From sequence record ON871820: a stretch of DNA of 64,000 nucleotides; one strand, given 5' to 3'. This document shows positions 10,355 through 12,566 of this stretch, piece by piece. Made by a program: the position numbers and the translations under genes. Each line of letters starts with the position of its first letter. The first letter of the stretch is position 1. Under the pieces are notes generated by a model. The model did no database searches, had not been told where the DNA came from, and was given only the letters and a program-made list of their open reading frames with translations. This stretch comes from Escherichia phage vB_Eco-B1.1.

Positions 10355-11095
10355 ATGATTAGTGACTCTATGACAGTTGAAGAAATCCGTCTTCATTTGG
10401 GGCTTGCATTAAAAGAAAAAGATTTCGTAGTTGATAAAACTGGTGTTAAAACTATTGAAATTATTGGCGCATCATTTGTAGCAGATGAACCGTTTATTTT
10501 TGGCGCTCTTAATGATGAATACATTCAGCGTGAACTTGAATGGTATAAATCTAAGAGTTTGTTTGTTAAAGATATTCCAGGTGAAACACCAAAGATTTGG
10601 CAGCAGGTAGCATCTTCTAAAGGCGAAATTAACTCGAATTATGGTTGGGCTATTTGGTCAGAAGATAACTATGCCCAGTATGATATGTGTTTAGCTGAAC
10701 TTGGTCAAAATCCTGATTCTCGGCGTGGTATCATGATTTATACTCGTCCATCCATGCAATTTGACTACAATAAAGATGGTATGTCAGATTTCATGTGTAC
10801 TAATACAGTACAGTACCTGATTCGTGATAAGAAAGTCAATGCGGTTGTTAGCATGAGAAGCAATGATTGCTGGGCAGGCTATCGTAATGATTATGCTTGG
10901 CAAAAATACGTACTAGATAAATTAGTATCTGATTTGAATGCAGGCGACCCATCGCGGCAATATAAAGCAGGTTCTATTATATGGAACGTTGGAAGTCTTC
11001 ATGTGTACGAAAATCAGTTTTATTTAGTTGACCATTGGTGGAACACCGGTGAGACTCATATTGCTAAAAAGGATTATACTGGAAAATGGAAGTAA
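10355..11095 (+). CDS. 42: gp42 dCMP hydroxymethylase
   Basis: 246 aa; thymidylate-synthase-like fold motifs; synteny. Confidence 0.9.
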   Translation: MISDSMTVEEIRLHLGLALKEKDFVVDKTGVKTIEIIGASFVADEPFIFGALNDEYIQRELEWYKSKSLFVKDIPGETPKIWQQVASSKGEINSNYGWAIWSEDNYAQYDMCLAELGQNPDSRRGIMIYTRPSMQFDYNKDGMSDFMCTNTVQYLIRDKKVNAVVSMRSNDCWAGYRNDYAWQKYVLDKLVSDLNAGDPSRQYKAGSIIWNVGSLHVYENQFYLVDHWWNTGETHIAKKDYTGKWK

Positions 11096-11727
11096 ATGTG
11101 CCGCATGTTTATAAGTATAAACATCCTAAAACTAAAAAGTGGTATATAGGAAGTCATGATGGTCACAACCCGAATTATGATGGTTCGGGTGTAGTTTGGC
11201 AACATGTTAAAAAGAAATATGGAATAAAATCCTTTAATAAAGAAATATTATATGAAGGACCAATGTTTAGACAGGTTGAAGAAATTATTTTAACTTGTTT
11301 AGATGCTGCTAATTGTCCGGATTCATATAATTTAAAGAATGAAGCATGGGGAGGAAGTTTTCCAGGCAAATTAAATGGAATGTACGGTAAAAAACTATCT
11401 CCAGAAGAAAGATATAAGTGCGGAAATGCCTTTCGTGGAATCAAGCGTCCTGATCATTCTAAAAGAATGAAAGGCGAAGGTAATCCAATGTATGGTAAAA
11501 ATGAGCAGGCATATGGAATTATAAATCGAGCCAAGGAAAATTCTGGTAAAACTTATGAAGAAATTTTTGGCGTAGAAAAAGCTAAAATAATTAAAGAAAC
11601 GATGTCTAAAAATCGTAAAGGAAAACCTCATAATTTGATAGAAAAAATATGTCCGCATTGCGGACTAAAAGGACGTGGGCCAAATATGACAAGATACCAT
11701 TTTGATAAATGTAAGGCACTTAAATGA
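11086..11727 (+). CDS. GIY-YIG (Seg-like) homing endonuclease
   Basis: HVYKYKHPKTKKWYIGS fits GIY...YIG; NUMOD-like GNPMYGK / GKPHN repeats; C-terminal CPHCG zinc knuckle. Confidence 0.55.
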   Translation: MEVNVPHVYKYKHPKTKKWYIGSHDGHNPNYDGSGVVWQHVKKKYGIKSFNKEILYEGPMFRQVEEIILTCLDAANCPDSYNLKNEAWGGSFPGKLNGMYGKKLSPEERYKCGNAFRGIKRPDHSKRMKGEGNPMYGKNEQAYGIINRAKENSGKTYEEIFGVEKAKIIKETMSKNRKGKPHNLIEKICPHCGLKGRGPNMTRYHFDKCKALK

Positions 11728-12566
11728 TTCAATTCGTAATTCCAAGTTATCAGCGTGTCGGGGCAGTTTCTGCCCTTGATATGTTTCCGACTGATTATGA
11801 ACCGCATATTGTAGTGCGTGAACATGAAGAAAAAGCTTATTATGATGCCTATGGGTCTAAAGCTAAAATTATAACTATTCCTGATGATGTAAACGGAATT
11901 GCCGGTACTCGTAAAGCAATTACTGATATGTATGCAGGTCAACGAATCTGGATGATTGACGATGATACTACTATTCGTATGAGTTCAATGCGAAAGAGAG
12001 ATGATCGGCGCTGCGTAGATAAAGTCAATCAATTGACTCGTGAACAGTTCTATGAATTGATTCAATACGTTGAAGATGCCATGGATTGCGGGTATTATCA
12101 TGGTCATGCTCGTCTACCTATTTTTAAAATTACTTCATCTTGGGGTAATTATCGTGAAAATTCATATGGATTCACGAATACATGGTATGACCTCGGAAAA
12201 CTTACGACAGAACAAATTGGGTATGGAAAAATTGATTTATGCGAAGATATGTATGCATTTCTCAATTTAATTAATCAAGGTTATCCGCATTTGGCCTTGT
12301 TCAAATATCTGGTTGTATCTGGAAAAGCACAAGCTCCTGGCGGATGTAGTTCAATTCGTAGTAATTCTAAACATAATAGAGCGCTTGAACAAATCAATAG
12401 AGAGTTTCCAGAGCAAGCTCGTTGGAAAACTTCTAATATTGAAAAACGAAAATCGTTGGGTGAAGAAGATGAACCACTAAAGGTTCTTCGCATGTGTGTT
12501 TCGCGCAAAGAAAAATCAGAAGCATTTCATAAGTTTAATGCTATTCATCCAATAGCAGTTGATTAA
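11724..12566 (+). CDS. GT-A-type glycosyltransferase, candidate hmC-DNA glucosyltransferase (beta-alpha-gt-like)
   Basis: 280 aa; IPSYQR N-terminus and WMIDDD (DxD) motif; sits in the 42-uvsX interval where T4 has beta-gt. Confidence 0.5.
   Translation: MIQFVIPSYQRVGAVSALDMFPTDYEPHIVVREHEEKAYYDAYGSKAKIITIPDDVNGIAGTRKAITDMYAGQRIWMIDDDTTIRMSSMRKRDDRRCVDKVNQLTREQFYELIQYVEDAMDCGYYHGHARLPIFKITSSWGNYRENSYGFTNTWYDLGKLTTEQIGYGKIDLCEDMYAFLNLINQGYPHLALFKYLVVSGKAQAPGGCSSIRSNSKHNRALEQINREFPEQARWKTSNIEKRKSLGEEDEPLKVLRMCVSRKEKSEAFHKFNAIHPIAVD

Follow-up and report, generated by a model that had tools for sequence, protein, structure and literature searches.

A T2/T6-type glucosyltransferase gene, preceded by an optional Seg-like endonuclease gene with gene 42 as its probable target, in a Tequatrovirus

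The interval between gene 42 and uvsX of Escherichia phage vB_Eco-B1.1 (sequence record ON871820), analyzed here within a stretch of 64,000 nucleotides of that genome (‘the window’), contains two genes on the plus strand: an open reading frame of 213 codons (ORF213, positions 11086 to 11727) and one of 280 codons (ORF280, 11724 to 12566). The initial annotation, made from the sequence alone, had described such a pair, a GIY-YIG reading frame followed by a protein with a WMIDDD motif, and both genes are present where it had placed them. The reading favored here, to which we assign a probability of roughly 85%, is that ORF280 is the beta-glucosyl-HMC-alpha-glucosyltransferase gene (‘ba-gt’) of phages T2 and T6, the product of which would generate gentiobiosyl-hydroxymethylcytosine (gentiobiosyl-hmC), and that ORF213 is a selfish endonuclease gene that has inserted between gene 42 and ba-gt and would home into gene 42. 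The feature to which the initial annotation drew attention is textbook T2/T6 biology, and the endonuclease, with its presumed action on gene 42, is a modest side finding; what is new is the population evidence that links the endonuclease gene to gene 42, which is probably its target.

The window is that of a Tequatrovirus (approximately 96-97% identity over 25 kilobases to EC121, G4498 and JK23), and its ORF280 is the known T2/T6 enzyme, a GT-A-fold member of the TAGT family. The protein is identical to the T2 enzyme at 277 of 280 residues (the substitutions being R11H, K46R and P251S) and to the T6 enzyme at 257 of the 261 residues that the T6 record annotates, and in both of those phages ba-gt occupies the identical slot, directly after gene 42. 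At an identity of at least 90% it is found in about 470 phage records (by tblastn), many of which carry the label ‘beta-glucosyl-HMC-alpha-glucosyl-transferase’; the arrangement is already known, and is annotated in hundreds of Tequatrovirus GenBank records. The profile and BLAST comparison of positions 11724 to 12566 that had been proposed as a check was carried out, and in addition to the near-identity with T2 and T6 it returned Pfam TAGT (PF20691) at 38.9 bits, against a cut-off of 27.5, over 205 of the 205 positions of the profile, as well as PHROG 842 (‘beta-glucosyl-HMC-alpha-glucosyltransferase’, 5.6e-89). NCBIfam has no model for ORF280, and a sequence search of the PDB found no related solved structure.

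Because the PDB sequence searches gave no usable relative for either protein, fold searches were needed for both. An AlphaFold model of ORF280, built on 48 family members, reached a predicted local distance difference test score (pLDDT) of 92.4 and a predicted template modeling score (pTM) of 0.90, and its best matches in the PDB (E about 3e-6, template modeling score, TM, about 0.5) are all GT-A enzymes of the GT-A/GT2 kind: WrtF, the chondroitin polymerase K4CP, RmlT, TarP, TarS and SpsA. The WMIDDD sequence occupies residues 76-81, and the sole invariant residues among the 48 TAGT family members are I6, R11, R63 and D79-D81, the last of which form the DxD motif (11958-11966, plus strand). 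A transferase of the T2/T6 type with a glycosyltransferase fold, which the initial annotation had offered as its first option, is therefore what the gene encodes.

Two irregularities were noted in the T2 and T6 genes themselves. Both T2 records have histidine at residue 11 (codon 11 of the window gene lies at 11754-11756), a position that is arginine in all 48 aligned TAGT sequences, in nine other Tequatroviruses that were inspected and in the window; T2 has thus lost a family-invariant residue that the window retains, and R11H might explain the low gentiobiosylation activity of T2. In the GenBank record of T6 (MH550421) an in-frame TAG is found at codon 10 of ba-gt (2924-2980 in the T6 sequence, minus strand), so that the gene is annotated from Met20 (261 residues), without the invariant N-terminal strand; either a mutation in the phage stock or an error in sequencing may account for this codon.

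In T4, the same interval is occupied by the gene for beta-glucosyltransferase (‘beta-gt’), an enzyme with a GT-B fold, which is followed by segA (T4 annotation). The initial annotation had named only beta-gt at that locus, and had proposed that beta-gt was replaced in the present phage by a Seg-like gene together with a transferase. The transferase half of this proposal stands, in that no T4-type beta-gt is found in the 42-uvsX interval of the window, but the Seg-like gene is an optional, independent insertion (discussed below). ORF280 shares with the T2/T6 enzymes its length of 280 residues, its position between gene 42 and uvsX, its TAGT profile (PF20691), its GT-A fold and its DDD triplet. 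With the T4 enzyme it shares the locus and an association with the glucosylation of hmC in DNA (PMC13390438); the T4 protein is, however, unrelated (Pfam T4-Gluco-transf, PF09198) and places a single beta-glucose on hmC, whereas ORF280, a GT-A/TAGT protein, is expected to extend alpha-glucosyl-hmC.

The presence of gentiobiosyl-hmC in T2 and T6 has been credited to their homologous ba-gt enzymes (PMC6024577). In a 2026 study, the nucleosides of ten Tequatroviruses were measured by high-performance liquid chromatography and mass spectrometry (HPLC/MS); these phages encode, like T6, an alpha-glucosyltransferase (alpha-GT) and a TAGT, the latter syntenic with the beta-GT of T4, and their DNA contains hmC, alpha-glucosyl-hmC and alpha-gentiobiosyl-hmC, with beta-glucosyl-hmC absent (PMC13390438). 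Some of them displayed the three nucleosides (hmC, alpha-glucosyl-hmC and gentiobiosyl-hmC) at roughly 1:2:2, and others approximately one third hmC and two thirds gentiobiosyl-hmC, alpha-glucosyl-hmC being present only at a low background level (PMC13390438). The nucleoside analysis by liquid chromatography and mass spectrometry that the initial annotation had proposed has thus, in effect, already been performed for phages that share this layout of genes. Its expectation that the modification differs from that of T4 is established for T2 and T6 (PMC6024577) and measured in Tequatroviruses with this layout (PMC13390438), and we infer the same for the source phage.

In that phage, an alpha-glucosyltransferase would first create alpha-glucosyl-hmC in the DNA, and ORF280, as a metal-dependent enzyme, would then add a second glucose from UDP-glucose through a beta-1,6 linkage, so as to form gentiobiosyl-hmC; beta-glucosyl-hmC would not be made, because T4-type beta-gt is absent. 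The alpha-gt gene adjoins gene 47 in the close relative JK23, and the window begins inside gene 47, with alpha-gt located just beyond that end in relatives. The transferase would set which sugars are carried by the cytosines, and with them which restriction enzymes, glycosylases and clustered regularly interspaced short palindromic repeats (CRISPR) systems can attack the phage; the type of modification is useful for predicting host range in phage therapy, although for T2/T6-type phages it is already understood and routinely annotated.

The endonuclease gene, for its part, is an independent, optional mobile insertion that had no part in the replacement of beta-gt. In an alignment of 14 genomes, an identical insertion of 632 nucleotides (11090 to 11721 in the window, plus strand; also seen in pairwise alignments) is present in seven of seven carriers and absent from seven of seven non-carriers, its placement being ambiguous by two nucleotides of shared AA, and in its absence the stop of gene 42 and the start of the transferase gene share the sequence ATGA. 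Carriers of the endonuclease gene include DalCa and AugustSocin. The gene is absent from T2, T6, ECO4, WilhelmHis, RB10, PP01, slur03 and SG1, where the ATG of ba-gt overlaps the stop codon of gene 42. Its protein is found (at an identity of at least 95%) in 77 phage records, as compared with about 470 that have the transferase, or approximately 16%, which leaves 77 carriers versus about 400 non-carriers. Yersinia phage MHG19 possesses a homologue that is 65% identical, situated after gene 42, with a T4-type beta-gt as the next gene; it is therefore to gene 42, and not to the type of transferase, that the endonuclease gene is tied.

In a few records the gene appears damaged. The gene is in two pieces in the records of REP2 and BCH953P2, which suggests a frameshift. 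In the record of Klebsiella phage vB_KpnM_GF (MK421971, about 1890-2000), gene 42 breaks off after approximately codon 212 and runs on into the final 30 or so codons of the endonuclease homologue, so that the end of the former and most of the latter are missing; the fusion reflects either a true deletion or an assembly error in what is a ‘partial genome’ record.

The sequence, predicted fold and conserved residues of ORF213 all point to a free-standing, Seg-type GIY-YIG homing endonuclease, and thus to a separate selfish element with a putative nuclease activity. It matches PHROG 314 (homing endonuclease, 8.1e-30), is 42% identical to T4 SegA over 71 residues and 35% identical to SegC over about 130, and scores below the cut-off of the curated models NUMOD3 (18 versus 20.4 bits) and TIGR01453 (21 versus 56); some of its homologues do carry PF01541 or PF19835 (SegE_GIY-YIG). 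The diagnostic motif takes the form V8-Y9-K10 ... Y20-I21-G22. Across 54 aligned homologues there is no variation at Y20, G22 or N82, and next to none at Y9 and E65 or in a C-terminal C189-x2-C192 ... H205-x3-C209 arrangement. A catalytic domain at residues 7-90 or thereabouts (11104-11355) is followed by a NUMOD3-like linker and by the zinc-finger-like CxxC...HxxxC motif at residues 189-209 (11650-11712), all on the plus strand. The best PDB matches of its model (pLDDT 87) are two structures of the I-TevI catalytic domain, 1mk0 and 1ln0, both with a probability of 1.00, a target TM of 0.64-0.67 and a root-mean-square deviation of about 3 Å (at best 0.67 and 2.9 Å), whereas the PDB sequence search had produced a chance match only. 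The GIY-YIG assignment of the initial annotation is upheld by these conserved residues and by I-TevI as the closest fold. Between genera, the ratio of nonsynonymous to synonymous divergence (dN/dS) of the gene is 0.13-0.15, a value that denotes purifying selection.

An origin of ORF213 as the T4 segA orthologue, moved across the transferase gene, was considered and rejected, since its identity to SegA extends over 71 residues only and is no better than that to SegC. Several records already label the gene ‘homing endonuclease’; the literature yielded only general reviews and genome announcements, with no description of an endonuclease at this position.

The evidence that connects this gene to gene 42 lies in gene 42 itself, which encodes a deoxycytidylate (dCMP) hydroxymethylase of 246 residues (10355 to 11095, plus strand; Pfam Thymidylat_synt, 1.3e-14; so annotated in near-identical phages). 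Across the 14 aligned genomes, 38 nucleotide differences are fixed between carriers and non-carriers, and all of them fall at positions 10856 to 11086 (plus strand), in the last 240 nucleotides of gene 42; in ba-gt and the start of uvsX the same alignment contains no fixed difference, though those regions are freely mosaic. The gene product (gp42) changes accordingly from non-carriers to carriers, with NDVVFGF becoming NDCWAGY, DSTR becoming DPSR and YSRHF becoming YENQF; three clusters of substitutions lie at 10856-10882, 10948-10957 and 11008-11017. Synonymous divergence (dS) between the two alleles is 1.21 in this tract, as opposed to 0.27 in the first 498 nucleotides of the gene, and is as large as that between genera.

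When phage records were searched with a query spanning the junction, exactly 77 held the tract and the endonuclease gene together, so that every carrier (77 of 77) has the tract; the endonuclease gene beside a tract of the non-carrier type was not seen among them. The tract, or part of it, occurs without the endonuclease gene in about nine records. Two of these are T4_ev151 (LR597660, gene at 2003-2743), in which the tract extends to about position 11045 in window numbering, and BYEP02 (OR757454), in which it extends to about 10999; in these recombinants, of natural or laboratory origin, the tract has been separated from the endonuclease gene.

An independent replicate of the tract boundary is provided by a pair of Klebsiella Jiaodaviruses. 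The gene 42 sequences of Mexia (a carrier) and Mineola (a non-carrier) differ at two of the first 497 nucleotides and at 70 of the last 244, and the break falls at the same codons as in the coliphages, those of M-R-S-N-D (the RSND active site). On the downstream side of the insertion the differences between Mexia and Mineola are scattered sites only, about 30 of them over the 837 nucleotides of the transferase gene. A third replicate was sought among close relatives of Yersinia phage MHG19 that are free of the endonuclease gene, and none was present in the phage collection.

More distant homologues display a related association. The genomic context of seven metagenomic homologues (45-60% identity) was checked, and all seven lie directly downstream of a co-oriented gene of the thymidylate-synthase family (PF00303), in neighborhoods that are otherwise unrelated (a T4-like phage with uvsX, a phage with a family-A DNA polymerase, a contig of about 380 kilobases and others) and in which the next downstream gene is different every time; a more remote relative, P0072, follows a gp46-like gene rather than a PF00303 gene. 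Repeated mobility of the ORF213 family is indicated, because the family recurs after thymidylate-synthase-family genes in unrelated phages.

On one metagenomic contig (3681-4793) the homologue is followed by a T4-type glucosyltransferase gene (PF09198) and nucleotide-sugar genes, and on the contig of about 380 kilobases (4743-5390) a second NUMOD3-bearing gene is located nearby, an arrangement that is repeated on a contig of 133 kilobases. These loci are further islands of base-modification genes in which the selfish element recurs.

Together these patterns allow a homing mechanism to be proposed. In a mixed infection, ORF213 would cut gene 42 in genomes that lack the endonuclease gene. The cut would fall near nucleotide 500, where the active-site motif of the thymidylate-synthase family, MRSNDVVFGF (the RSND...RND segment), is encoded, about 235 base pairs upstream of the insertion, and the cleavage or recognition region would be located at the left edge of the tract at 10856-11086. 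Repair from the genome of the carrier would then necessarily copy the resistant 240-nucleotide end of gene 42 and the endonuclease gene together. A cut near nucleotide 500 is suggested because the minimal tract runs from a sharp boundary to the endonuclease gene, because no fixed differences lie on the other side, because linkage is complete in carriers while non-carriers may hold the tract, because two genera share the boundary, and because the family associates with thymidylate-synthase-family genes. If correct, this would explain the sharp block of divergence in gene 42 of dozens of coliphages and of Klebsiella phages. It would also offer a testable natural case, relevant to selfish DNA in phages, of a homing endonuclease tied to a gene of hmC synthesis.

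The principal competing explanation, which we regard as unlikely, places the cut at or beside the insertion point of ORF213 itself (the junction of gene 42 and ba-gt), with the diverged end of gene 42 carried along as a hitch-hiking block of donor sequence. The insertion disrupts the junction at which GGTGAGTGG meets AAATGATTC, which would be enough alone to protect carriers, and the intron-encoded relative I-TevI, which cuts at most some 25 base pairs from its insertion site, supplies an analogy. A cut at the junction should nevertheless co-convert both sides with variable ends, and what is seen is 38 fixed differences upstream and none downstream, with a left boundary at the same codon in two genera; moreover, the linkage of the tract is complete in all carriers although its surroundings are freely mosaic, and for published Seg enzymes the listed cleavage target lies within a neighboring conserved gene (Table 1 of PMC2988022). 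A junction cut thus accounts less well for the asymmetry and for the common boundary than does a distant cut in gene 42. Still less probable is that ORF213 is an inactive or domesticated, immobile remnant, kept by linkage or as the source of the ba-gt ribosome-binding site. The split gene of REP2 and BCH953P2 and the 30 or so residual codons in phage GF would fit such decay, and the 3' end of the endonuclease gene does provide an AAGG before the ba-gt start, but a remnant is difficult to reconcile with the strong purifying selection on ORF213 between genera, with the conservation of the catalytic Tyr, Glu and Asn and of the zinc-finger cysteines in 54 homologues, with the patchy distribution of the gene among closely related, otherwise mosaic phages, or with the recurrence of its family downstream of thymidylate-synthase-family genes in unrelated phages. 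The least probable of the alternatives, and a very improbable one, concerns the transferase: ORF280 might move a different sugar, or act directly on hmC, and leave the DNA with something other than gentiobiosyl-hmC. Predicted acceptors are diverse across the broad TAGT family, fucosyl-, rhamnosyl- and N-acetylglucosamine (GlcNAc)-transferases are among the fold matches, and the DNA chemistry is known from other phages rather than from the source phage; against this, ORF280 is only three residues removed from the T2 enzyme and four of 261 from the T6 enzyme, and gentiobiosyl-hmC was detected by HPLC/MS in Tequatroviruses with the same alpha-GT and TAGT layout (PMC13390438).

The favored reading, a T2/T6-type ba-gt preceded by an endonuclease gene that homes into gene 42, must also be set against a number of observations that weigh against one or another of its parts. 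For the transferase, the reported fraction of gentiobiosyl-hmC is about 5% in T2 and 72% in T6 despite their near-identical enzymes; the presumed alpha-gt of the source phage is predicted from its relatives, and the gentiobiosyl-hmC expected in its DNA is predicted from the chemistry of other phages. For the endonuclease, the Pfam GIY-YIG model (PF01541) does not match ORF213 itself, no invariant arginine is found in residues 23-50 among the 54 homologues (K44 is nearly invariant), and an equivalent of Arg27 of I-TevI was not identified. Promoter scans found neither a sigma-70-like site above background nor the T4 late-promoter sequence TATAAATA near ORF213. Both the enzymatic activity of ORF213 and its cut site are predictions from sequence comparison, and the sharp boundary of the tract could mark a recombination hotspot that coincides with a conserved motif, and not a break site. 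Finally, xWAG and xxQ signatures are present in the upstream protein beside six closer homologues, and not beside the four most distant; because the neighbors of those four are without them, the signatures of gp42 are candidates only and not proven resistance determinants, and CWAGY/ENQ is not claimed as such a determinant.

Comparison with the T4 endonucleases places the proposed action on gene 42 in a familiar setting. SegA through SegG are, like ORF213, encoded by free-standing GIY-YIG genes in intergenic positions beside conserved genes, and are of similar size (about 210-225 residues); segA even shares the 42-uvsX interval, but is located downstream of the transferase gene, abutting its target uvsX, whereas ORF213 is upstream of the transferase gene, abutting gene 42. 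ORF213 is an orthologue of none of them, and its proposed target, gene 42, differs from theirs. SegF and SegG reportedly cut a few hundred base pairs from their own genes. The targets of three Seg enzymes lie inside neighboring conserved genes: uvsX for SegA, gene 56 for SegF and gene 32 for SegG (PMC2988022, Table 1). The likeness to SegF and SegG would thus reside in a cut at a distance, within a neighboring essential gene, with obligatory co-conversion of the interval (‘marker exclusion’); the difference is that the cleavage site of ORF213 is deduced from population data only, and would be in gene 42.

I-TevI, the endonuclease of the T4 td intron, resembles ORF213 in its GIY-YIG catalytic fold and in its NUMOD3-like and zinc-finger elements, and its target, the thymidylate synthase gene td, is likewise of the thymidylate-synthase family and is recognized at sequence that encodes conserved active-site residues. 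It differs in being intron-encoded and in cutting near the insertion site of that intron; ORF213 is a free-standing gene, situated downstream of the gene it presumably targets. A wider proposal, that ORF213 belongs to an uncharacterized Seg clade which is specialized on thymidylate-synthase-family genes (those for dCMP hydroxymethylase and its relatives) across very different phages, cuts their RSND codons some 235 base pairs away and maintains an ancient polymorphism of resistant and sensitive gene 42 alleles, is in our judgment evenly poised between true and false. If it is true, gene 42, with which the hmC pathway begins, would join the marker-exclusion loci of T-even crosses.

With respect to expression, the ATG of ORF213 overlaps the final 10 nucleotides of gene 42, and the start of ORF280 overlaps the stop of ORF213 as ATGA; because stop and start codons overlap on both sides, the arrangement suggests that ORF213 shares a transcript with its two neighbors, gene 42 and ba-gt, and is translationally coupled to them. 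An AAGG that precedes the ba-gt start is contributed by the 3' end of the 632-nucleotide insertion. A scan for terminators found nothing specific near ORF213. A G+C-rich, terminator-like hairpin (GGGGCAG-TTT-CTGCCCT, 11760 to 11776, plus strand) was identified by that scan in codons 13-18 of ba-gt; a T-rich run follows it, it is kept in T2 and other phages without the endonuclease gene, and the annotation of phage DalCa lists it as a terminator.

The downstream limit of the locus is formed by the recombinase gene uvsX (12644 to 13825, plus strand; Pfam T4_UVSX_C, 4.7e-39, and RecA). Its 5' part (about 12700-12944) contains further dense blocks of divergence in SG1, HY03 and DalCa, and in HY03 a shortened uvsX annotation is followed by an extra reading frame. 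By analogy with T4 SegA, which targets uvsX, these blocks at the start of the gene may be the footprint of another mobile endonuclease.

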